The notes under the pieces are model-generated. The model was not told where the DNA came from, made no database searches, and saw nothing but the letters and a program-made list of their open reading frames with translations. 64,000 nt of DNA from Candidatus Marinacidobacterales bacterium (GTDB taxonomy: Bacteria; Acidobacteriota; Vicinamibacteria; Marinacidobacterales; DATDRI01). The DNA lies in the NCBI GenBank assembly GCA_965219415.1, contig OZ244742.1, positions 1,952,001 to 2,016,000 on the forward strand, written 5' to 3'. The position numbers were made by a program, and so were the translations under genes. Positions within the stretch are counted from its first letter, which is position 1. Every line of letters begins with the position of its first letter. Below, in pieces: positions 25,860 to 43,338 of this stretch.

Positions 25860-26720
25860 TTAGTGGGGAACTTGGCCTGCGGCGTGATAGGAGCTTCGAA
25901 CCAAAGGCCCGGATTCGACGTGGCGAAAGCCAGTCGCCTCCCCCACGCGCTTCAGCTCGCGAAACTCGTCGGGATGATAAAAACGTTCGACCGCCAAGTG
26001 CTTCTTGGTCGGCTGGAGATACTGGCCGATCGTGAACACCTCGACTCGTGCCGGTACCAGTTCCTTCATGACATCCACGATCTCGTCGAAGTCCTCTCCG
26101 AGTCCGACCATGATTCCCGTCTTGCTCACGACTCCTGGAGACAGCGTCTTGGTGCGCTGGAGCAGTTCTATCGACTGCGAGTAGTTCGCGCCCGGTCGGA
26201 CTCGCTTATAGAGACGGGGCACCGTCTCGATGTTGTGGTTGAGGATTTGGGGTCGAGCCGCCAGGACTGCTTCTAGAGCCGCCTTCGAACCTTTGAAGTC
26301 GGGTATCAAGACCTCGATGGTAGTATCGGGATTGTCCCGTCTCACTGCTTCGATGGTACGGGCAAAGAGGGTCGCGCCCCCGTCGGGTAGCTCATCGCGA
26401 TTGACCGAGGTGATCACCACGTGTCGCAAACCCATCGCCTTCACCGCCGCGGCAACGCGTGACGGCTCGGCCAAATCAAGCGTGGTCGGCAGCCCAGTTG
26501 TCACGGCGCAGAAGCCGCAAGCCCGAGTGCAGATGTCGCCCAAGATCATGAAAGTCGCGGTTCCCTGCCCCCAGCATTCGGCCACATTGGGACATCGAGC
26601 CTCTTCACAAACGGTGTGGAGATTGTGCTCCCGCATCACCGACTTGAGGCGGGTGTAGTTCTCGCCACCGGGAAGGCGGACGCGAAGCCAATCCGGCCGC
26701 GGTGATCTTGTAGCTACCAT
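25860..26720 (-). CDS. lipA: lipoyl synthase
   Basis: CEEARCPNVAEC, CTRACGFC, RSSYHA. Confidence 0.97.
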   Translation of the reverse strand: MVATRSPRPDWLRVRLPGGENYTRLKSVMREHNLHTVCEEARCPNVAECWGQGTATFMILGDICTRACGFCAVTTGLPTTLDLAEPSRVAAAVKAMGLRHVVITSVNRDELPDGGATLFARTIEAVRRDNPDTTIEVLIPDFKGSKAALEAVLAARPQILNHNIETVPRLYKRVRPGANYSQSIELLQRTKTLSPGVVSKTGIMVGLGEDFDEIVDVMKELVPARVEVFTIGQYLQPTKKHLAVERFYHPDEFRELKRVGEATGFRHVESGPLVRSSYHAAGQVPH

Positions 26721-26791
26721 GGCTTCATATTCTACAAACAATTAGACGGGATTGACAGGCTGGCTTTCTCACCCTTGATAGCGAGCGGCCG

Positions 26792-29342
26792 CTATGGAGC
26801 TCGAGGCAGCGGTGACCTGGGCTCCGGCACCTCCCGACGCCCCCGCCTTTCATCAATCTTCCGCCTCTTATCGATCTTCCGTTGGATGAATTCCGCCCCG
26901 TAGACATGTTCGGCCGCCAATCGGTTGTGGGGCGGGCATAAAAGGCGAAGAAATCGCTCATCGTGGCTGCGAAAGATGGCAAACGGCCGCTCGTGTTCCA
27001 CCTGAAGACCAGTCCGCGACCGACATCGCCTCCCATCAACGCTTTTGTATTCACATTGGTTGTTCCCACGAGCGTGGACCCGCTCGATGGCCTCAGAAGG
27101 AATGTATCGCGACCTGGCCGGCTGGTCTTCCACACCTGGCGCGACATCTCCCGACACCTGACCCGGACGAGCAAGGCCGCCGGCTGAGGCCGGCCCTATC
27201 AGGCGAGAAACTACCTGAGCTGATAAAAGGGTTGTCGGTGAAGGCCCCGGCAGCTAAACCCCGTAGCACCACTGGTGCACTAATGCCCCAGGACGAGCTT
27301 GGGTCCGAGCCGGCTCCCTATCATTGGCGAGGCTTTGAACGGAAGCACTCCCCAACGACACCGTCTTTGAATCAAATGGGGGATTGGCTCATCGAGCAAG
27401 GAGTCGAATCGGTTGCGATGGAAAGCACCTACGTCTATTGGATTCCGATTTATGAGTTGCTTGAATCGCGGGGTCTTGAAGTGGTGCTGGTAAATGCTCG
27501 ACAGTTAAAAAACGTCCCCGGGCGTAAAACCGATATGCATGACTGTCAGTGGCTGCAGCTGTTACACAGCTGTGGTCTGTTGCGAGGCTCGTTTCGTCCT
27601 GGTGAGTCGATCTGCCGCCTACGCTCGCTTCACCGACAGCGTTGCAGCCTCATCGAGCAGTGTAGTCGAGCTATTCAATGGATACAGAAATCTCTGGACC
27701 AAATGAACGTTCAGGTCCATCGTGCAGTGACCGACATCACCGGCGTCACAGGCATGCTCATCGTGCGCGCCATCGTTGATGGTGAGCGTGACCCGTCAAA
27801 GCTGGCTGCATTTCGTGACCAACGCTTGCAAGAAGAGCGAAGAGGAGATCGCCGAGCATCTTACCGGCACTTGGCGTGACGAGCATCTTTTCAACCTCGC
27901 ATCGGCTCTGCGTCTCTACGATGCGCTACAAGCCGAAGTCGAACTGTTCGACCAGCGTATCCTTGAAGTGCTCATCGAACTCCAGCCGCCACAACGCGGA
28001 CACCACAACGTGCCAGCTCATCCAAATCCGCAAAAACGATACGACATGCAGCATCGGGGCGAGAGCGAACTGCGCAACGAGCTGTGGCGTTTTGCTGGAT
28101 GCGACCTCACCAGGATCGACGGAATCAGTCCAACCACCGCCGCCATTGTCCTCACCGAGATCGGATTCGACCTCTCTGATTTCCCTTTCGAAAAATTCTT
28201 CGTCTCATGGCTACATCTCGCCCCACGTCGCCCTATCTCCGGCGGTAAACAACTCTCCAAACGCCGCAACGGCACCGGCTCCAATCGCATCGCCGGTGCC
28301 TTACGTATGGCCGCTGTATCTCTCTCCCGCTCCAAGACGCCCTAGGCGCTTACTATCGCCGCACTGCTCGCCGTAAAGATGGCAAAACCGCCGTCTTTGC
28401 TACAGCACGCAAGCTCGCCCAGCTCGTCTTCCGCATGCTCAAATATGGCCACGATTACATCGATATCGGCGAACGCGCCTTCGAAGACCGTTTTCGCCAA
28501 AACCACATCAACGGTTTACAAAAGGCAGCCGAAGCTCTCGGATACACCCTCACTCCCCAGGCTTCCGGAGGGTAGTTTCGGGTCAGGTGTGGTTTTGGTG
28601 GCCTTTTGCCTCGCCCTTCGCCGCTCGAGCTTCCTCTTGGGGTCTTTCTTATCGAGGGCAACGTCCAGAGCCTGCTCCAAGATCTCCGCCATATGCTTTT
28701 GAGCATTCTCGACGCCCATGACTTCAGCCAGTCGCTCGAACTTCTCTTTGAAGCTCCGGTCGGCCGAGAATCTGAAGTTAAACACGGCGGGGCGGGCTGG
28801 CTGGAGGATGTTGGCCGAGCTCGGTGACCGCTGCTGCGTCCTCATCGTCAACTCGCGCGGAGGGGGCGCTGGTCTTTCCGCTGGCGCTGCCTCCACCGGC
28901 AGCGGCCGGGCGGGGCGTCTTCGGATCGACGGCTCGAACACCGGTTTGGGCTCGATATGAACGAGATACTCTAGTACCTCCTTCTTGGTCATCCCGGCGC
29001 AGTCCGCAAGGAGCTTGTCGACATTACCCTCACTCAGATGAGGGGCCAGAAATCCCGCAACCGTGAGACTGATACGGTTCTCGGCCAGCGCGACGAGGAG
29101 CTGAGGGAAGCGAATGGAAACATTGGCCACGTGTATTCGCGATGCGACCGAGCCTTCGCTCAGATGAAGCCGTTCGACGCAGTAGTGAAACGTACTCTTG
29201 TAACCGAGCTCGAGCGCGACCTTTCTCCTGGACATCTCGGCGATATGGGCCATGAGCTGGGCAACGTTTTGTTTCTCGGCGCAGACCAATTTCTCGGCCG
29301 AACGATCCAGCTCGCCGTCAGACAGACGTTCAAGCTTTCCGA
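26792..29342 (-). pseudogene. DUF222-like/HNH endonuclease gene, interrupted by IS110 and 5'-truncated by IS256
   Basis: N-part LSDGEL..AHIAEM..GYKSTFHYC..LHLSEG; C-part RYIP..CEY..C..EH..LLCPPHN; the parts rejoin in frame when IS110 is removed. Confidence 0.85.
27172..28586 (+). mobile_element. IS110 family element with defective transposase
   Basis: VAMEST.VYW, GRKTD, RIDGIS, ISGGK motifs; frameshifts near 27825 and 28340; AG at 27170-71 and 28585-86; inverted GAAACTACC/GGTAGTTTC. Confidence 0.9.
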
Positions 29343-30711
29343 GGATCCGTCCCGCTTCCCGTGGAAATAAGAATGGCGTAACCTCCGGTTAAGCAAAACG
29401 AAACCGCGCCTGGAAAGGCGAGGAGGAGGATTACGCCATGAAGAAGCCTACCACCATATTGAAGGAGTCTGTAAGCGAGTACCGGGAGTTCGTCCAACTT
29501 CGGCTGCGCATGCGGGTACTGGAGGCGATCGAGGTTGTGCTCGAGGAAGAAGTCGACCAAGCGCTGGGGTGTTGTAGCTACGAGCGTGCGGAAGACCGCC
29601 GTGGATATCGCAACGGAGCCGAAACCCGTCGCGTGACGACGTCGGTGGGAACTCGCGAGCTCCGGGTGCCACGAGCCCGCGTGCGAGACGAGGAAACGGG
29701 AGAAACGACAGAGTTCAGGAGCGAGCTGTTGCCCCGGTACGCGCGCCGGACTCGTGAGATCGACGAGGCGCTCTTGGGGACGTACTTGTCGGGCGCGAAT
29801 AGCCGCCGGGTCCGCAAAGCGCTGAAACCACTGCTCGGTGAGGAGCACCTATCGAAGAGCGCGGTGTCTCGCGTGGTTAGCCGGCTGAAGGAGCGCTTCG
29901 AGGAATGGCAGAACCGTGCTCTCAGCGAGGAGGTCTACGCGATCGTTTACCTGGACGGCTTCCACCTGAAAGTGCGGATGGCGAAACGTGTGATCAGCGT
30001 ACCCGTACTGGCCGCGCTCGGGGTCGCGCCAGACGGGCACAAACGTCTGTTGTCATTGCGTCTGGCGGTGAGCGAAGCCTCGACGCATTGGGGCTCCGTA
30101 CTGGAGGGACTCCAGGCTCGAGGACTCCGGGCTCCCAAGCTAGTGATCAGCGACGGCCACAAGGGGCTGACGAAAGCGCTGGAGAAGTGGCCGGGGTGCC
30201 GGTTGCAGCGATGTACCGAGCACAAGCGCGCCAACTTGCTCCAACATTGCCCGGCGCACGCACGCCGTGAGCTCCGGCGTGACTACAACCGGATCGTCTA
30301 CGCCAAGAACGGGATCGATGCTCGCAAAGCCTATGACGAGCTCGTCGCCAAGTGGACGCCTCTCGCGCCGGCCGTCGTCCGAAGCCTAGAGGAGGCCGGT
30401 AATCAGCTGGGCTGACCTTCTACGAATTCCCTCGTGCCATGTGGAAATCGATTCGAACGACCAATGCTCTGGAGAATCTCAACCGCGAGTTTCGACGCCG
30501 GACGAAAACCCAAGCGTCATTCTCCAGCGAGGAGTCTGCGGTCGCTTTGCTGTTTGGGCTTATCGCCTCTGGCCAGATTCAACTACGACGCATCGACGGC
30601 TACCAACGTCTGAGCGAGGTTCTCGAACACGCGAAGGTTGCCGCCTGATATGATACTCTGATGACGGAGTGGAGGGCGCCGTTCTTTTTCCACGGACCTC
30701 GGGACACATCC
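29343..30711 (+). mobile_element. IS256 family element, copy 1 (transposase 29438-30648, frameshift at ~30410)
   Basis: ~35-bp imperfect terminal IRs GGATCCGTCCCG.../...CGGGACACATCC; YLDG, SDG, QRC, RTTNALE. Confidence 0.92.
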
Positions 30712-30806
30712 GGCTCCAGCCGCTGGCGTGGCTTGTCCGGCCTAGATTCTTCCCTCGTAGTTTCGCCTCTCCGCTTGGCCTCGTGGATTCGGCTAGGCCC
30801 CGAACC

Positions 30807-32120
30807 CTAAAGAATCTTCTCATCCCAGGTTTCGAGCTTCTTCTTCACTTCGGCCATGAACTGGTCCCCGACCGCACCATCGATGACGCGATGATCAAAG
30901 GTCAGCGACAAGTACAGCATCGAACGGACCGCGATGGCGTCGTTCACGACGACGGGACGTTTGTGGATCGCGCCGAGGCCCAGAATTGCAACCTCGGGCT
31001 GATTGATGATCGGCGTGCCGTAGAGGGCTCCGAAGGGGCCAGGATTCGTAATCGTGAATGTCCCACCCTGAACCTCTTCGGGCTTTAGCTTCTTCTCCCG
31101 GGCCCGCGTCGCCAGATCGTTGACCGTACGCTGCAAACCGAGAAAGCTCTTCTCGTCGGCGCGATGAAGGACGGGCACGATGAGTCCCCAATCGAGGGCG
31201 ACGGCGATGCCGATATTGAGATCCTTCTTATAAATGATGTTGCTTCCATCCAAGGAGGAGTTCACGATCGGAAACGACTTCAGACCGTGGAGCACGGCGC
31301 GGATGAAAAACGGCATGTAGGTAAGCTTCACGCCTTCTTCCTGCTCGAAGCGACCTCGTTTCTCCTGGCGCAGCTTCACGATTCGCGTCATGTCTGCTTC
31401 CCAGACGGTCGAGACATGCGCCGATGTCCGTCGCGACATGACCATATGCTCAGCGATGGACTTGCGCATCACGCTCATCGGCTCCGAGTGCACACGACCC
31501 GCATAACCAGCGGTGGGAGAAGGTACAGGGGCGGCGGCCAGAGGTGCGGCTCCGGTAGGCGCAGGAAGCGTTGGCGCGCTGGGTGCGGCGGCAGCAGGGG
31601 GCGCGCCCTTCTCCAAGAAACTCGCCATGTCCTGCTTGCTGATTCGTCCTCCGGCACCGGTTCCTGGCACCTGCGACAAATTGACGTTGTGCTCCCGCGC
31701 CATCCGTCGGACTAGGGGAGACGAGCGTTGGCGCTCACCGCCAACCCCTTGGGCGGGCGTTGGCTCTGGAGCCTCCTCTCGAACCGACGCGACGGGGGCG
31801 GTCACTTCCTTCGGCACCTCGACCGTTGGCTGCGTGGTAGCCAAAGAAGGCTCGGCGGCCGCAGGTTCTACGGCCCCCCCGCTTCCACCACCGATGACCC
31901 CCACCACGGTATTGATGGGCACGGTCTCGCCTTCTCCAACCTTGATCTCAGTCAGCACTCCTGCCGCCGGCGAAGGGATCTCGGTGTCGACTTTGTCGGT
32001 TGAGATTTCGAACAGCGGCTCATCTCGTTCCACTTGATCGCCGGGCTTCTTGTACCATTTGGTGATCGTTCCCTCGGCGATGCTTTCGCCCATTTGAGGC
32101 ATGATGATCGGTGTCGCCAT
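30807..32120 (-). CDS. 2-oxoacid dehydrogenase E2 (dihydrolipoyl acyltransferase)
   Basis: lipoyl domain EISTDKV, SPLVRR binding domain, GGTFTITN, FDHRVIDG. Confidence 0.95.
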   Translation of the reverse strand: MATPIIMPQMGESIAEGTITKWYKKPGDQVERDEPLFEISTDKVDTEIPSPAAGVLTEIKVGEGETVPINTVVGVIGGGSGGAVEPAAAEPSLATTQPTVEVPKEVTAPVASVREEAPEPTPAQGVGGERQRSSPLVRRMAREHNVNLSQVPGTGAGGRISKQDMASFLEKGAPPAAAAPSAPTLPAPTGAAPLAAAPVPSPTAGYAGRVHSEPMSVMRKSIAEHMVMSRRTSAHVSTVWEADMTRIVKLRQEKRGRFEQEEGVKLTYMPFFIRAVLHGLKSFPIVNSSLDGSNIIYKKDLNIGIAVALDWGLIVPVLHRADEKSFLGLQRTVNDLATRAREKKLKPEEVQGGTFTITNPGPFGALYGTPIINQPEVAILGLGAIHKRPVVVNDAIAVRSMLYLSLTFDHRVIDGAVGDQFMAEVKKKLETWDEKIL

Positions 32121-32152
32121 CGGTCCTGTTCCTCGCTTATTGTTTAGTAGGT

Positions 32153-33127
32153 TTAGTAGGCCGCCAGTTTGCGGGCCGCCTCGACCACGTCAGTCACTTG
32201 CGGGATAAACGCATCCTCGAGCTCGGCGCTATAGGGGACCGGCGTATCCGGTGCGGTGATCCTAAGGATCGGACCATCCAGATCCTCGAAGACCTCTTCG
32301 GAAATGACTGCGGAGATCTCGCCCGCCATCCCGCCGGTGCGGGTGTCTTCGTGGAGGATCATGGCTTTGTTGATCCGGCGTACCGATTCCAGGATCGTCT
32401 CCCGATCGAGCGGCACCAAGCTCCTGAGGTCAATGACCTCGAGGTCGACTCCTTCTTTCTCCAAGACCTCTGCTGCCTCGAGGGCGACGTGCACCATCGC
32501 TCCGTAGGTGATGAGGACGATGTCCTTGCCCACGCGGCGTACCGCCGCCTTTCCGATGGGCACCGTGAAATCGTCGCTCGGTAGCTCTTCCTTTATCCTC
32601 CGATAAAGATACTTATGCTCCAGGTACAGTACCGGATCCTCGTCCCGCACCGCAGACTTCATCAACCCCTTCGCATCGTGCACGGTGGCCGGCGCCACTA
32701 CCTTCAGCCCGGGTGTGTGAACGAAGTGCATCTCGGGATTCTGAGAGTGAAACGGTCCCGCTCGCACGCCGCCACCCGCCGGACCACGTAGCACGATAGG
32801 AACACCCGCTCCCCAACGGTATCGACTCTTGGCGGCAAAATTAGTGATCATGTTGAAGGCATTGGCGATGAAATCGATGAACTGAAACTCTACGATCGGT
32901 CGCAAACCCATGTAGGCGGCGCCAATCGCAACGCCGGTGTACCCTTCTTCACTAATCGGTGTGTCGATCACCCGATCTCCACCGAACTTGTCGAGAAAAC
33001 CCTTGGTCACCTTGAACGCACCACCGTAGACCCCGATGTCTTCACCTAGAATGAGAACGCGCTCGTCGCGCTCCATCTCCTCCCACATCGCTTGACGGAT
33101 CGCTTCGAGGTACGTGATTTCGGCCAT
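32153..33127 (-). CDS. 2-oxoacid dehydrogenase E1 beta subunit
   Basis: GEDIG..GG, DTPISE, EFQFIDF, GPFHSQ. Confidence 0.95.
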   Translation of the reverse strand: MAEITYLEAIRQAMWEEMERDERVLILGEDIGVYGGAFKVTKGFLDKFGGDRVIDTPISEEGYTGVAIGAAYMGLRPIVEFQFIDFIANAFNMITNFAAKSRYRWGAGVPIVLRGPAGGGVRAGPFHSQNPEMHFVHTPGLKVVAPATVHDAKGLMKSAVRDEDPVLYLEHKYLYRRIKEELPSDDFTVPIGKAAVRRVGKDIVLITYGAMVHVALEAAEVLEKEGVDLEVIDLRSLVPLDRETILESVRRINKAMILHEDTRTGGMAGEISAVISEEVFEDLDGPILRITAPDTPVPYSAELEDAFIPQVTDVVEAARKLAAY

Positions 33128-33130
33128 GAT

Positions 33131-34174
33131 CTAGTTGGAACTGCTTTCTACCGAAGTCGACGTGTGATGAAAGACCTGGTCACTTCCCGGCGCACCCCCC
33201 GTAAGCATTGACGCGGGCTCCTGCTCGGCCCGGGCGACATCCTCCGCAATGACACTCGCGACCCGCGCGAGAATGACCTCTTGCTCCTCGCGTTGGATTT
33301 GAGCGTGCTCGCCGAGAAAGGCCTCAAACTGCTCCACCGGATCGCTCAATTCGTCATCCTCCGGCGCCATTTTCTGCTCGTCGTCATCGTCGTTAGCGGC
33401 GCCAGCTTCGCCCTGCAGGGGAAAGACATCCTCGCGCATGCTGAATCGGGATCGACCGGCTGTGCTAGCTTCGATCAGAGACGGCCCCTTTCCGGATCGC
33501 CCGCGTTCCACCGCTGCGTCTACGACCTGTAACACCTGCAGCACGTCGTTTCCGTCTACCATGACCGTGGGTAGGCCGTAAGCCTTTAGCCGCTCGTAGT
33601 GGTTCCGACCGGCAGGTGCGTGAGTGGCCGGTGCACGCAAACCGACAGGTTTTTTTTCGACCACCACCACCAGCGGAACCTCATGCACCGCCGCGAAATT
33701 GAGACCCTCGTGAAAATCACCGGTGGCCACCGCCCGGTCGCTCACCATCGCAAGTGCTACCGAATCCTTCTTCTGCATCTTGGCGGCATAGCCTATACCG
33801 GCCATGCCCCCCAAGTGCGTGGCCAGGTGTCCGCTCGGCCCTACCAGTCCCCGCTCCAAGTCCCCAAACTGTATCGAGCCATCGCGACCATGTGTCGGAC
33901 TCGACTGCTTCCCCATGAAGTGCGAAAGGATCTCGTAAGGACGAACTCCACGCGCGAGCAGGGCGCCATTAGTGGGAATCGCGGAGGAGAAGAAGTCACG
34001 GGCCTCCAAAGGGTAGGCTGCTCCTAAACCGAGAGCCTCCTGTCCGGTGCTAATGGGAAGCGTGCCCACCAGTTTCCCGGCGCGGAAGAGTCGAACCAGC
34101 TCTTCCTCGAGGCTGCGATTGAGCTTCAGGAAATAGTAAAGCTCATGAAGTTGTTGCTTTCCAAACCTCGACAT
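33131..34174 (-). CDS. E1 alpha-like subunit with degenerate ThDP-binding motifs
   Basis: GQEA, THGRDG, GDFHEGLNFAAV, VDGNDV, GPSLIEA present; GDG->SDR, NN->KK. Confidence 0.85.
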   Translation of the reverse strand: MSRFGKQQLHELYYFLKLNRSLEEELVRLFRAGKLVGTLPISTGQEALGLGAAYPLEARDFFSSAIPTNGALLARGVRPYEILSHFMGKQSSPTHGRDGSIQFGDLERGLVGPSGHLATHLGGMAGIGYAAKMQKKDSVALAMVSDRAVATGDFHEGLNFAAVHEVPLVVVVEKKPVGLRAPATHAPAGRNHYERLKAYGLPTVMVDGNDVLQVLQVVDAAVERGRSGKGPSLIEASTAGRSRFSMREDVFPLQGEAGAANDDDDEQKMAPEDDELSDPVEQFEAFLGEHAQIQREEQEVILARVASVIAEDVARAEQEPASMLTGGAPGSDQVFHHTSTSVESSSN

Positions 34175-34853
34175 GAGATTCCTGGAGAAGGTTCTCGGAC
34201 GTGCCGGCGAGCATCATTCTGTCGAAGACCCGCCCGAAATCGGAGCACAGTGCATCGGCCACCTCAAGGGCTGGCACCGTACCCCCCAGCACACTTTGCA
34301 TCGAAGCGACTTCGCGGCCGACGATACCACACGGGACGATGCGATTGAAGTAGCTGAGATCGGTGGTGACGTTGAGAGCGAAACCATGGGATGTCACCCA
34401 TCGCGAAACCCGCACGCCGATAGCGGCGAGCTTTCCTTGCTCGTGCCAAACGCCGGTTAAGCCCTGTTGACGCCGTCCCTCGATCCCGAAGCGGGCGACG
34501 GTGCGGATGAGCACTTCCTCGAGCCGCCTCAAATAGACATGGGCGTCGGGCTGGGACTCCTTGAGATCCAGGATCGGGTAGCCCACGAGCTGACCATGAC
34601 CGTGGAACGTGATATCGCCTCCCCGGTCGGTGAGGACGAACGTGGCGCCCAGCCGCTCTAGCTCGCGCTCGTCTGCGAGCAGGTGCTCTCTCTTTCCGCC
34701 CCGCCCCAGGGTGTACGTGGGCGGATGCTCGACGAGAAGAAGAACATCTGGAATATCGCCAGTCTGGCGGCGTTTTACGAATTGGCGCTGAAGGTCCCAG
34801 ACCTCGTGATAACTCCGACGGCCTAGATCGATCCGCCAACAGAGCTTAGGCAT
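34143..34853 (-). CDS. lipB: lipoyl(octanoyl) transferase
   Basis: EHPPTYTLG, RGGDITFHG, KLAAIG, HGFALNV, PCGI. Confidence 0.95.
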   Translation of the reverse strand: MPKLCWRIDLGRRSYHEVWDLQRQFVKRRQTGDIPDVLLLVEHPPTYTLGRGGKREHLLADERELERLGATFVLTDRGGDITFHGHGQLVGYPILDLKESQPDAHVYLRRLEEVLIRTVARFGIEGRRQQGLTGVWHEQGKLAAIGVRVSRWVTSHGFALNVTTDLSYFNRIVPCGIVGREVASMQSVLGGTVPALEVADALCSDFGRVFDRMMLAGTSENLLQESHVEVWKATTS

Positions 34854-36249
34854 GAATCGGCAGATCCTCAGCAGCGTGCGCCGCTTCCATGACGGACTCC
34901 GAAAGCGTCGGGTGTGCGTGAACCGCGCGCATCAGCGACTCGGCGGTGGCTTCGTGCTCGAGGGCCACCACCGCCTCCGCAATGAGATCTGTGGCGTGTG
35001 GCCCAATGATGTGAACTCCGAGCAGCTCGTCGTATTTCGCTTCGCTGACGATCTTCACGAACCCTTCACGTTCTTCCAAGATGCTGGCCTTGCTGTTGGC
35101 GGCAAAAGGAAACCGACCGACTCGGACGTCGTAACCTCTTTCTTGGGCGGTGGCCTCGGTGATCCCGACACTCGCCACCTCAGGCGAACAGTAGGTGGCG
35201 CTCGGCATGTGCCCGTAGTTCATGGGCCGCACCTCGCGGCCGGCGATCTTCTCGACCGCGAGAATGCCTTCCGCCGAACCCACATGCGCCAGTTGTTGCG
35301 ATGGAACAATGTCGCCGATGGCGAACACGTGTCTCGCAGACGTCTCCATGAAACCATTGACCGGAATAAAGTCTCTTTCCGTTTCGATGCCGACCCGCTC
35401 CAATCCGATCCCTTCGGTTCTCGGCTTCCGACCGACGGCCACGAGAAGCTTCTCGACGGTGCGGACCCCTGCCTTCCCGTCCGGTCCGGTGAAGCTGACG
35501 GTCACTGCGTTTCCTTCGTTCTTGACGGATTCCACCGTTGTTCCGGCAAGTGTCTCGATGCCCCGTTTCTTGAAGGACTCTGCCAAAGCGTCCGAGATCT
35601 CCTCGTCTTCGACCGGCAAGATGCGCGGCAACATCTCGATCAGCGTCACCTCGGTGCCGAAGCTAGAGAACATCGAAGCAAACTCAACGCCTACCGCTCC
35701 GGCGCCGATGACCGCGAGCGACTTCGGCTGTGCCGGTAGGGACAGTATTTCGGTATTGGTAAGAATGTTCTGGCCGTCGATCTCCATGCCAGGGAGACTT
35801 CGAGCTTCGGATCCGGTCGCAACAATAATGTTGCGCGCGTAGACCGTCTGGACGCCCTCGGCTCCTTTGATCTCAACCTTGCCCGCACCGGCAATTGCGC
35901 CAAAGCCCTTGACCGTCTCGACCTTGTTCTTCTTTAGAAGGAAACCAACTCCTCCGGAGAGCCTCTTGACGACTCTCTCCTTGCGTTTCTGGAGCGCCGC
36001 CCAATCGAGGCGAACATTCTCCACCACCACACCGAAATCCCGCGCGCGCTTGAGCTGGTCCAAAAGGTCCGCGGTATGAAGGAGCGCCTTGGTGGGTATG
36101 CAACCCACGTGAAGACAGGTCCCTCCGAAGACACCGTCCTTCTCCACCACCATCGTTTTGAGACCCAGCTGTCCGGCCCGAATCGCAGCCACGTAGCCGC
36201 CGGGGCCGCTCCCGATCACCACCACGTCGATCACTGTTTCTTGCGCCAT
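34846..36249 (-). CDS. lpdA: dihydrolipoyl dehydrogenase
   Basis: GSGPGGY, GGTCLHVGCIPTK, HAHPTLSE. Confidence 0.97.
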   Translation of the reverse strand: MAQETVIDVVVIGSGPGGYVAAIRAGQLGLKTMVVEKDGVFGGTCLHVGCIPTKALLHTADLLDQLKRARDFGVVVENVRLDWAALQKRKERVVKRLSGGVGFLLKKNKVETVKGFGAIAGAGKVEIKGAEGVQTVYARNIIVATGSEARSLPGMEIDGQNILTNTEILSLPAQPKSLAVIGAGAVGVEFASMFSSFGTEVTLIEMLPRILPVEDEEISDALAESFKKRGIETLAGTTVESVKNEGNAVTVSFTGPDGKAGVRTVEKLLVAVGRKPRTEGIGLERVGIETERDFIPVNGFMETSARHVFAIGDIVPSQQLAHVGSAEGILAVEKIAGREVRPMNYGHMPSATYCSPEVASVGITEATAQERGYDVRVGRFPFAANSKASILEEREGFVKIVSEAKYDELLGVHIIGPHATDLIAEAVVALEHEATAESLMRAVHAHPTLSESVMEAAHAAEDLPIHA

Positions 36250-36811
36250 ACTACTCGTCCTTATCTTAGTGCTCGCTCGCTGGCCCTCGCTCTTCCATCA
36301 ATGGCGCGGGGCCTCACCGCTGCCTGGCGAAGTCGACTAGTGGCACCGACCTCTTTGGGCAGCCGACACGAGCGAGCCGGCGGCCCTCACGGGCCGCTCC
36401 TCTCCTGCTCACTTGCGGGCCTATTTCTCTTTTTGTTCTTTTCAGAGTTGGGCTTTTTTCGCCCTAGCACCCTTCGATACGCCGGATCCCTCCAAGGACC
36501 TGACAGGGTTGATCTTTTGGCGCCCGGCGGGCAGTTTACCCCCGCCTGGCGGCTCCAGGCAACAGAAAAGCGGCTTTTTGGAGGGACACGGTCGGTATTT
36601 AAGAAATCCATTGCACCGACCGGCCCCTGTGTTAAACTACCACTTAGCCTGTCCGTGGGCATCTACGCCGTTTTGCTGGGCTTATACGACTCACTCGCCC
36701 CTAAGACCAGACTAGAGCCGGATGGAGATAGACCTCGAAGTGATACCTGCTTTTCCATCCTTCGAAGTTGCCCGAGAACGAGCGGTCGACGGACCCGAAA
36801 CAAGTGAAATC

Positions 36812-40579: not shown

Positions 40580-43338
40580 GGGTCTACGCGGATTCGTGTG
40601 GGTTGGAAACTGCATTTCTGGGTAATGGCGGAAGGAAAGTCGCCACGATCTTCAGCTTGAGATATTCCTCGTCGCGATAGCCGTAGGCGCGTCGTTGCAG
40701 AACACGGATTTTGTTGTTGACCCCTTCAACTAGGCCGAGACTGACTTTGTTCTCCGGATGACAGTAGGAGGCGATACCATCCCAATGGGACTCAATCATA
40801 CCGGCGAACTTCTGGTACGGATGCAGGCGTTGCCATTTGAGGCTGTCTTTCCAACGAGTGAAAAAGGCGCGAGCGCCGCGTTCGGTGCGGTAACCCCAGA
40901 GTTGCCCGAAGGCCTCCTTCAAAATATAGGCGGTGTTCAGGCGCCGGTTGGCCTGGAGCAACTTTTTGAGTGCGCGGCGACCGTCTAGGCTCAGGTTCTC
41001 CCGCCGGGAAAGCAAAGTGTAACGCTGCCCCTTGATGTACGACCGGTCCTTGCCGCTGAGGCGTTTGTACTCACCGCGCCGGACCTCATCGAGGGCCTTT
41101 GACAGATGACGCATGATATGAAACTTGTCGGAGATGATCCGCGCATTAGGCGCGTTGTGAATCACCGAGTTCCGGAAGGGCTTCCACATATCCATGGCGG
41201 CCAGCTTGATACGGGCGCTTTTCTTTCCGCCCAGCGCCTTGAAGAACAAATCGATGTCGGTTTCTTTGCGACCCTCACCGCCCACCCAGATGGGACGCGC
41301 CCGCTCCAGGTCGCTGACAATGACGCGATAGTTATGTCCCTTGCGGATGGAGATCTCATCGACACCGATGGCCCGAGGCGCCGGTAGCCCCGCCCGGTCG
41401 ACCTGCTCTTGCATGTAGAGCGTATCCAGAGCCTTCACCGTACCGTGGTGCAGACGTTCCATCTCGGCCACCGCCTTGTTCGGCATATCCCGGCACAGCT
41501 TGCCCACATGCGTCGCAAAACGCTGGGTGTAGCGCGAGTTGTTCGCCAGCCAGTCTAGGTGTTCTACATGCACACCGCCGCACCCAGAACAGTTGACGCG
41601 CCAACGCTCGTATTCCAGATAGATCCGCCAGCCTGCCAACGACAGGTCGCGGACCCGGCACACTTGCTTGTCATAGCGCCCCCGGCACCGTTGCCCACAG
41701 TAAGAGCACACAGCTGTTTTTTTCGCCTCTTGAGCTGGATGACACGGGCGTATCGGTCACCGAATAGACCCTTCAATCCGGCACCAACCACGAAACCTGG
41801 CAGCGCAAACAGCGAGCGGATCGACTGGGAATTTTTCACTCGGTTAGCCTATCCTAAAAATGGACCACTTTTCAGCACCTGATGAAGTACTCGATACCTT
41901 TTCCACACAATGAGTTACACTGTTTTTCCGTCAGAACTTACCCACACGAAGTCGGGATCCGTCCCGCTTCCCGTGGAAATAAGAATGGCGTAACCTCCGG
42001 TTAAGCAAAACGAAACCGCGCCTGGAAAGGCAGGAGGAGGATTACGCCATGAAGAAGCCTACCACCATATTGAAGGAGTCTGTAAGCGAGTACCGGGAGT
42101 TCGTCCAACTTCGGCTGCGTATGCGGGTACTGGAGGCGATCGAGGTTGTGCTCGAGGAAGAAGTCGACCAAGCGCTGGGGTGTTGTAGCTACGAGCGTGC
42201 GAAAGACCGCCGTGGATATCGCAACGGAGCCGAAACCCGTCGCGTGACGACGTCGGTGGGAACTCGCGAGCTCCGGGTGCCACGAGCCCGCGTGCGAGAC
42301 GAGGAAACGGGAGAAACGACAGAGTTCAGGAGCGATCTGTTGCCCCGGTACGCGCGCCGGACTCGTGAGGTCGACGAGGCGCTCTTGGGGACGTACTTGT
42401 CGGGCGCGAATAGCCGCCGGGTCCGCAAAGCGCTGAAACCACTGCTCGGTGAGGAGCACCTATCGAAGAGCGCGGTGTCTCGCGTGGTTAGCCGGCTGAA
42501 GGAGCGCTTCGAGGAATGGCAGAACCGTGCTCTCAGCGAGGAGGTCTACGCGATCGTTTACCTGGACGGCTTCCACCTGAAAGTGCGGATGGCGAAACGT
42601 GTGATCAGCGTACCCGTACTGGCCGCGCTCGGGGTCGCGCCAGACGGGCACAAACGTCTGTTGTCATTGCGTCTGGCGGTGAGCGAAGCCTCGACGCATT
42701 GGGGCTCCGTACTGGAGGGACTCCAGGCTCGAGGACTCCGGGCTCCCAAGCTAGTGATCAGCGACGGCCACAAGGGGCTGACGAAAGCGCTGGAGAAGTG
42801 GCCGGGGTGCCGGTTGCAGCGATGTACCGAGCACAAGCGCGCCAACTTGCTCCAACATTGCCCGGCGCACGCACGCCGTGAGCTCCGGCGTGACTACAAC
42901 CGGATCGTCTACGCCAAGAACGGGTTCGATGCTCGCAAAGCCTATGACGAGCTCGTCGCCAAGTGGACGCCTCTCGCGCCGGCCGTCGTCCGAAGCCTAG
43001 AGGAGGCCGGTAATCAGCTGCTGACCTTCTACGAATTCCCTCGTGCCATGTGGAAATCGTTTCGAACGACCAAAGCTCTGGAGAATCTCAACCGCGAGTT
43101 TCGACGCCGGACGAAAACCCAAGCGTCGTTCTCCAGCGAGGAGTCCGCGGTCGCTTTGCTGTTTGGGCTTATCGCCTCTGGCCAGATTCAACTACGACGC
43201 ATCGACGGCTACCAACGTCTGAGCGAGGTTCTCGAACACGCGAAGGTTGCCGCCTGATATGACACTCTGATGACGGGAGTGGAGGGTGCCGTTCTTTTTC
43301 CACGGACCTCGGGACACATCCCGAATCCGCGTAAACCC
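40580..43338 (-). mobile_element. ISL3 family element (transposase 40584-41839, A7 frameshift site) with IS256 nested in its IR
   Basis: IR GGGTCTACGCGGATTCGTGTGGGT vs split ACCCACACGAA..TCCGCGTAAACCC; flanks AGACTTCA/AGGCTTCA; GVDE, AMDMW, DKFH, EGVNNKI. Confidence 0.9.
41955..43321 (+). mobile_element. IS256 family element, copy 2 (intact 402-aa transposase 42049-43257)
   Basis: nearly identical to 29343-30711; flanks CGAAGTCG/CGAATCCG. Confidence 0.93.

Follow-up and report, generated by a model that had tools for sequence, protein, structure and literature searches.

A conserved, probably non-catalytic E1-alpha subunit with a likely trans-encoded catalytic partner in Marinacidobacterales

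The E1 component of 2-oxoacid dehydrogenases is a textbook symmetric enzyme, and engineered mutants have been the basis of the debate on whether its two active sites must communicate (proton wire, half-of-the-sites reactivity). The 64,000-nucleotide stretch of Candidatus Marinacidobacterales DNA analysed here (the window) holds an E1 operon in which an intact beta subunit is encoded beside an alpha subunit, termed alpha-star, with altered cofactor-binding residues. From the sequence alone, the original prediction had proposed a maintained non-catalytic alpha, acting as a regulator, a scaffold or half of an asymmetric tetramer with a second alpha encoded elsewhere. Is alpha-star a genuine and conserved protein, which alpha would then serve the beta, and what would an alpha without a working site contribute?

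The operon and the cofactor site of alpha-star

The operon runs in the order E3-lipB-alpha-star-beta-E2, and lipA follows after about 4 kb. The alpha-star reading frame shares 32 nt with the end of lipB and stops 3 nt short of the beta ATG, bearing out the earlier description of a full-length 347-aa E1-alpha packed between lipB and E1-beta. Profile searches match the E2, E3, lipB and lipA of the window to their families, although the E2 exceeds the TIGR02927 (SucB_Actino) cut-off only narrowly; with the catalytic residues of beta kept, E1-beta, E2 and E3 look as normal as first described. The features are listed below, with positions in the window unless another contig is named.

33131..34174, (-): alpha-star (P0001), candidate E1-alpha pseudoenzyme, 347 aa; PF00676, E=1.4e-44
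33974..33979, (-): I66-P67, replacing the diphosphate-contacting (Y/I)R; Arg in 0/37 orthologues
33734..33742, (-): S145-D146-R147, replacing GDG; G[DE]G in 0/37 orthologues
33692..33721, (-): interface helix G152-D-F-H-E156-G-L-N159-F-A161, carrying the counterparts of the proton-wire acids D180/E183; D, E, N, F and A in 37/37
33650..33655, (-): K174-K175, replacing the Mg-binding NN and lying within the T8 run; N175 in 1/37
33440..33454, (-): R241-S-R-F-S245, replacing the RxxGH loop; predicted to be disordered past 245
32153..33127, (-): E1-beta, catalytic residues E60 and H127 intact; S61E variant common to the whole order
30807..32120, (-): E2 acyltransferase, one lipoyl domain; TIGR02927 SucB_Actino 429.3 versus a cut-off of 423.45
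34143..34853, (-): lipB octanoyltransferase; family match
34846..36249, (-): E3 dihydrolipoamide dehydrogenase; family match
25860..26741, (-): lipA lipoyl synthase; IS-like ORFs in the roughly 4 kb separating it from E2
G000:C3:103579-104703, (-): alphaD, proposed partner, outside the window; stand-alone PF00676 gene

At 26792-30415 and 40584-43257, several ORFs resembling transposases and one split ORF resembling HNH, all named by eye, separate lipA from E2; in family f3 of the order, unlike the window, lipA is close to E2. The genome of the window (G000) is IS-rich, with one IS copy directly downstream of alphaD. Rfam searches of the window and six alphaD regions returned 0 matches, a promoter scan returned 0 sites, predicted terminators did not rise above chance, and plasmid searches yielded only distant matches at 29.5%. 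In runs X20 and X24 no RNA contig covers the alpha-star gene; one exact 191-nt piece falls in lipB only.

Independent contigs support the sequence as read. A contig of run X2 covers 32900-34377 with 0 differences and X1 is identical over 30700-36312, one or other of the two possibly being the source of the window itself; contigs of X7 and X12, from two other studies, read through both the T8 run and the SDR codons without any indel. The T8 run at 33650-33657 is thus real, and the contigs do not restore the motifs. A frameshift at the T8 run or miscalled motifs are excluded by X2, X7 and X12.

We compared alpha-star with the solved Geobacillus (1W85) and Thermus (1UM9) enzymes and with 45 non-redundant canonical relatives. 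Its PF00676 score of 152.7 bits lies far above the curated cut-off of 22, and the alignment reproduces each of the four replaced motifs that had been noticed (GDG reading SDR, NN reading KK, (H/Y)R reading IP and RxxGH reading RSRFS). Y102-R103 of the solved E1 corresponds to I66-P67, G172-D173-G174 to S145-D146-R147 and Q200-N201-N202 to E173-K174-K175, while the loop bearing H271 reads G240-R-S-R-F-S245, with no His in either register. R103 of E1-alpha we take to be the diphosphate contact. Gone from alpha-star are this Arg, both GDG glycines, the Mg-binding Asn and the loop His; the proposed loss of ThDP, Mg and catalytic residues needs amending at one point, the Mg-binding Asp, which is still present as D146 (D or E in 28/37 orthologues). 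Roles for D173, N202, Y102 and H271 of alpha and E59 and H128 of beta are given in PMC2663715.

The same residues are missing across the family. In a 37-row alignment of orthologues the diphosphate Arg occurs in 0/37, versus 45/45 canonical alphas, G[DE]G in 0/37 and Asn at 175 in 1/37; an RxxSH-like string occurs in 1/37, the RxxGH His being absent from P0001. The interface helix behaves in the opposite way, with D153, E156, N159, F160 and A161 present in 37/37. D153 and E156 are the counterparts of D180 and E183. These two are altered in 1W88, and a preprint assigns them to the proton wire and places their helix at the interface of the heterotetramer (bioRxiv 2022.05.17.492373). After redundancy filtering (28 alpha-star and 45 canonical sequences, with the interface taken from an alpha-star-beta model), alpha-star retains 1/11 canonical-invariant cofactor sites, 16/20 predicted beta-interface sites and 47/64 others, and conservation is higher at the interface (0.72 versus 0.64, p=0.016). 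With its catalytic residues lost, its fold kept and purifying selection acting on it, a reading of alpha-star as a non-catalytic E1-alpha pseudoenzyme is supported at the sequence level.

A remodelled pocket that binds another ligand, or ThDP in a non-canonical manner, would be a different outcome of the same losses. S64 and H116 are invariant among the orthologues, H120 is nearly so and position 146 is acidic in 28/37, as a new site might require. We consider this improbable, since the replacements at 145, 147, 175 and in the loop differ among sub-lineages in the manner of release from selection, and His at 116 is found in canonical alphas too.

The window beta retains E60, F83/F86 and H127, and E60 and H127 are invariant in 34/34 betas; because beta is intact, a working alpha is expected somewhere. 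The residue after the catalytic Glu is itself Glu (E61, window 32945-32947; ISEEG[FY]TG) in 20/20 sampled betas of the order. Outside the order this position, which falls in the predicted interface, is S, A, T, N or G in 45/46 betas where readable.

Conservation, selection and predicted docking

Among 40 relatives, strong orthologues of alpha-star (E<=4e-65) were present in 7/7 genomes of family f1, 16/17 of f2 and 0/16 of f3, the single f2 genome lacking one being 84% complete. The order E3-lipB-alpha-star-beta holds in 23/23 alpha-star-bearing relatives, none of whose translations contains GDG, and E2 is visible in 21/23 of these loci, the other two being cut by contig ends. A profile built from the 37 orthologues and run against 201 genomes of the class gave E<1e-116 only in f1 (5/5), f2 (15/15) and the window's own genome; its best match beyond f1 and f2 was 2e-80. 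Family members that carry a name belong to Vicinamibacteria, the class to which the window is accordingly assigned. Pairwise dN/dS for alpha-star was 0.04-0.29 with a median of 0.12 (NG86, 15 non-independent pairs), compared with 0.09-0.22 for alphaD and 0.11-0.29 for lipB by the same method. Single frameshifts in conserved genes of G002 (alpha-star and alphaD) and G012 (beta) are probably assembly indels.

Neutral decay or sequencing error could in principle yield such a gene, and alpha-star does diverge faster than its neighbour (orthologue identity 40-86% versus 75-97% for beta) and is frameshifted in G002, where alphaD is frameshifted too. A dN/dS of about 0.12, an open frame in 22/23 relatives and independent contigs identical at the motifs leave this explanation barely credible. 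Judged by its sequences, alpha-star is confirmed as a conserved family under purifying selection and not a decaying copy. The expectation that orthologues would share the substitutions with dN/dS below 1 held, none of the 37 being canonical, and the original idea of a maintained non-catalytic alpha finds sequence support in orthologues from two families, a dN/dS far below 1 and a selective loss of the cofactor site.

AlphaFold 2 (AF2) predicts alpha-star to adopt the E1-alpha fold (pLDDT 78.4), with both active-site loops at low confidence and predicted to be disordered. The best PDB matches of this model by Foldseek are all E1-alpha, the top ten at TM 0.70-0.78. A model of alpha-star with two betas reached an ipSAE of 0.92, versus 0.01 for the best of 3 controls, a value that may reflect recall from solved complexes of this textbook pair; the ipSAE mark was reached by 116/157 solved and 2/215 mismatched pairs. 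Runs of the alpha-star-beta2 model share at least 69% of contacts, with partner pLDDT at least 79. The alpha-star-beta2 model predicts that alpha-star still docks on beta, but what it documents is resemblance to solved E1 complexes and not binding itself. E1 active sites sit between alpha and beta', according to the PDB title of entry 1OLX.

AlphaD as a candidate catalytic partner

G000 contains three further PF00676 genes. One belongs to a canonical operon of alpha, beta and E2; another, adjoining an acyl-CoA dehydrogenase-like ORF, encodes alpha and beta as a fusion (G000:C1:499088-501253); the third is the stand-alone alphaD, 29% identical to alpha-star. Motif-intact and unlinked to the operon (G000:C3:103579-104703), alphaD answers to the second alpha that had been postulated. 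It occurs in 37/40 relatives, the three without it being 83-84% complete, and in 21/23 of those bearing alpha-star (not found in G007 and G036, 83% complete). In a survey of the class it was present in 47/47 genomes of the order and in no other order; in the wider phylum it occurs in 20/400 other genomes. The loci read show alphaD with complete motifs, the GDG triplet appearing as GEG twice and as GNG once. G001 and other genomes assembled as a single contig carry both alphaD and alpha-star, and the contamination of G000 (8.45%) therefore cannot account for their co-occurrence.

A free beta adjoins alphaD in 0/30 order, 0/19 other-class and 0/80 metagenome loci. In G003 and G005 (96% complete) the complement found comprises alpha-star, alphaD, the fused gene and one free beta, making alphaD the sole intact free alpha found there. 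The second alpha-beta-E2 operon, whose alpha is another possible server, is present in G000 and many relatives and missing from G003 and G005. In family f3, the operon reads E3-lipB-beta without an alpha in 16/16 loci, with beta and alphaD retained; the presence of alphaD and beta without alpha-star makes it very likely that the operon beta is served in trans by alphaD. Overall, alphaD is probably the catalytic partner of the operon beta.

A trace of contact between the two alphas may be preserved in alphaD. At the position equivalent to A162 of alpha-star, alphaD carries K or R in 20/21 alpha-star-bearing genomes, 0/12 f3 genomes and 0/19 genomes of the other class, a co-variation that amounts to one or two evolutionary events only. 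Canonical alphas, like alpha-star, carry A162. The alphaD of the order has also lost N159 and F160 of the interface helix, both of which alpha-star keeps. Position 162 is not among the beta contacts of the alpha-star-beta2 model, and an alpha-alpha contact would fit. The contact of the A162 equivalent is not stated in the consulted parts of two MSUD papers (PMC5388912, PMC6140420). A comparable association in the other class, between N159 of alphaD and an intact operon alpha (N in 11/12 with, 1/6 without), was dropped, as only about 2/3 lineage contrasts agree.

These observations lead us to favour an asymmetric 2-oxoacid decarboxylase, alpha-star-alphaD-beta2, with one active site and alpha-star as its non-catalytic half, because K/R162 in alphaD tracks alpha-star and alphaD of the order has lost N159/F160; we give this reading a probability of about 0.5. 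AlphaD would supply the single working site and alpha-star an empty one. That the two alphas share one tetramer is held with moderate confidence. Geobacillus E1p has two communicating sites, whereas human E1b sites are reported to be independent (PMC2663715); given the communication in Geobacillus, a one-site tetramer may work poorly. The persistence of alphaD and beta without alpha-star in f3 and other lineages means that alpha-star is not generally required.

The same interface could serve a dominant-negative throttle, in which alpha-star, co-translated with beta, would sequester it in dead complexes, possibly occupying E2 sites, so that the amount of alphaD sets the flux. Such a device would suit a gene 3 nt from beta with alphaD unlinked, a beta interface that the models predict to be retained, and absence from the small f3 genomes (2.7-4.9 Mb), as for an optional regulator. 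It leaves unexplained the alphaD interface change that tracks alpha-star, and searches revealed neither a riboswitch nor a sensing domain or new conserved pocket; we regard it as unlikely, if worth keeping in view.

Alternatively, alpha-star might act as a placeholder or assembly chaperone that holds newly made beta folded and is later swapped for alphaD, the mature enzyme being alphaD2-beta2. Its adjacency to beta in the operon, the persistence of alphaD and beta without it in f3 and the predicted disorder of both its active-site loops agree with this proposal. Invariance of the interface helix in 37/37 orthologues goes beyond the apparent need of transient holding, and f3 betas manage without alpha-star, so we find the proposal doubtful.

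The genes that adjoin alphaD elsewhere hint at another partner, against the asymmetric reading. AlphaD (of an N-terminal DPPEY-type clade) lies directly beside the fused alpha-beta E1 in 12/19 other-class genome loci and 17/80 metagenome loci (L223-L242, L243-L322). AlphaD might thus pair with the fused E1 (G000:C1:499088-501253), with alpha-star-beta joining the fused protein or the second-operon alpha in a hybrid E1 that shares an E2. Adjacency at those 12/19 loci, a fused-type match in every one of the 21 sampled phylum genomes that carry alphaD, and a single E2 serving several E1 genes in G003 and G025 all speak for this pairing, which we nevertheless rate a shade below doubtful: the fused protein occurs in 183/401 genomes (one unpublished, on which the comparison does not depend) versus 21 with alphaD and so does not need it, 0/30 alphaD loci of the order have a fused-gene match within 1.5 kb, and the second operon is missing from G003 and G005.

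Substrate clues are mixed as far as sequence models go. Neither alpha passes a PDH E1-alpha equivalog (alpha-star scores 171 versus 411 for TIGR03181 and 160 versus 394 for TIGR03182, and alphaD likewise falls under both cut-offs), the E2 barely passes SucB_Actino, and no SucA turned up in G000. Among the neighbours of alphaD (24 proteins, including a dacB-like peptidase, GNAT, thioredoxin-TPR and aminotransferase V) we found no substrate clue. SucA-type E1o (PF16870) was found in 1/5 genomes searched and not in G000, G001, G003 or G025, each of which has 2-3 matches to 2-oxoacid:ferredoxin oxidoreductase.

Origin of the dead subunit and comparison with known systems

All trees were built in 'quick' mode. 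Alpha-star nests with the canonical alpha1-type proteins P0017, P0031 and P0039 (support 100), and a clade uniting alpha-star with alphaD is disfavoured (p-AU 0.027, 26 rows); these two results exclude an origin of alpha-star by recent duplication of alphaD. A close genome for P0017, P0031 or P0039 was not found among 400, the best match being 54%. Moderate support (84-86) places the f3 betas within the alpha-star-linked betas, suggesting that f3 lost alpha-star secondarily. The E2-lipA block of f3 occurs in either orientation relative to E3-lipB-beta (L065-L080), which suggests repeated inversion.

Among alphaD genomes of the other class, twelve have an intact operon-type alpha and five read E3-beta-E2 without one; by their betas, the alpha-less operons of alphaD-bearing genomes belong to at least three separate lineages. 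In sister orders each locus fetched holds a single intact operon alpha, the loci having been located through their alpha. In a control that started from beta, an intact alpha lay within about 2 kb at 17/20 beta loci (19 genomes without alphaD; 20/24 matches fetched). The three exceptions (L358, L359 and L365, f64) pair beta with E2 but have no alpha next to them, an alpha1-like gene lying elsewhere in these alphaD-free genomes; one is at a contig edge. At nine loci (L081, L087, L088, L097, L323, L326, L329, L333 and L346) two different motif-intact alphas accompany one beta, and where alphaD is present as well, as in some of these genomes, the free alphas number three.

The ancestor may have had two live alphas sharing one beta, a state still present in another Acidobacteriota class. 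The presence of alphaD would have freed the operon copy to lose catalysis or be deleted, and the dead copy would then have been kept as a fitted structural partner in f1 and f2 or removed in f3. Such graded states would offer a clean case of obligate asymmetry, or a regulator, arising from a duplicated subunit.

Loss of cofactor sites extends beyond alpha-star: 21/148 new 50%-representatives have lost at least two of six sites. Eight of these, each with at least three cofactor sites lost, fall into three clades apart from alpha-star (P0298, P0299, P0338 and P0414; P0317 and P0384; P0328 and P0342), the last of which traces back to the alpha2 type found in two-alpha operons. Three further dead-alpha clades indicate that the outcome recurs. 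We tentatively propose that bacteria have repeatedly evolved a one-site, three-protein E1 (alpha-star-alpha-beta2), in which the dead alpha would be a co-adapted scaffold bearing the proton-wire acids. Within that proposal, and as tentatively for the two parts taken jointly, the order would display the full path from two live alphas through a dead fitted alpha to deletion, and at least three other dead clades would be independent repeats.

What is likely to be new is a conserved dead E1-alpha with a probable trans-encoded catalytic partner. Our search of the open-access literature found no dead E1-alpha subunit; one match that connects pseudoenzymes with thiamine diphosphate, Jhc1, was rejected as a thiamine triphosphatase relative. 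If the asymmetric reading is correct, a natural tetramer with one empty site and wire residues in its dead subunit would provide a direct test of site communication. Operon-based annotation misleads at such loci, as databases call alpha-star a normal TPP-dependent alpha subunit and leave the motif-intact alphaD an unlinked orphan.

The closest known systems are the alpha2-beta2 E1 enzymes of pyruvate and branched-chain 2-oxoacid dehydrogenases (Geobacillus 1W85/3DV0, Thermus 1UM9, human 1DTW/2BFF/1NI4; PF00676 with PF02779). Alpha-star shares their fold, interface helix and D180/E183 equivalents, likewise shares its operon with genes for beta, E2, E3 and lip functions, and is predicted to dock on beta. 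The known enzymes are symmetric with two equal sites, whereas the operon alpha-star lacks equivalents of R103, G172/G174, N202 and H271 and an intact alpha is encoded elsewhere. Actinobacteria share one E2 among E1s. The window E2 passes the cut-off for this DlaT/AceF-type shared E2 (TIGR02927), and one E2 is available to several E1 genes in G003 and G025; unlike the alpha-star system, actinobacterial E1p and OdhA are homodimers without a dead subunit. In the two-alpha, one-beta operons of Acidobacteriota (L081, L087, L097, L323, L326, L329, L333 and L346; L088), which are known from sequences alone, there are also two alphas per beta, and the alpha1 type is the canonical group ancestral to alpha-star, but both alphas keep all motifs. 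In the PDH core of mammals, the E3-binding protein (E3BP) is catalytically inactive. Like alpha-star it is a paralogue employed as a structural subunit of a 2-oxoacid dehydrogenase complex (core role described in PMC466950), E3BP being a paralogue of E2 and alpha-star one of E1-alpha.
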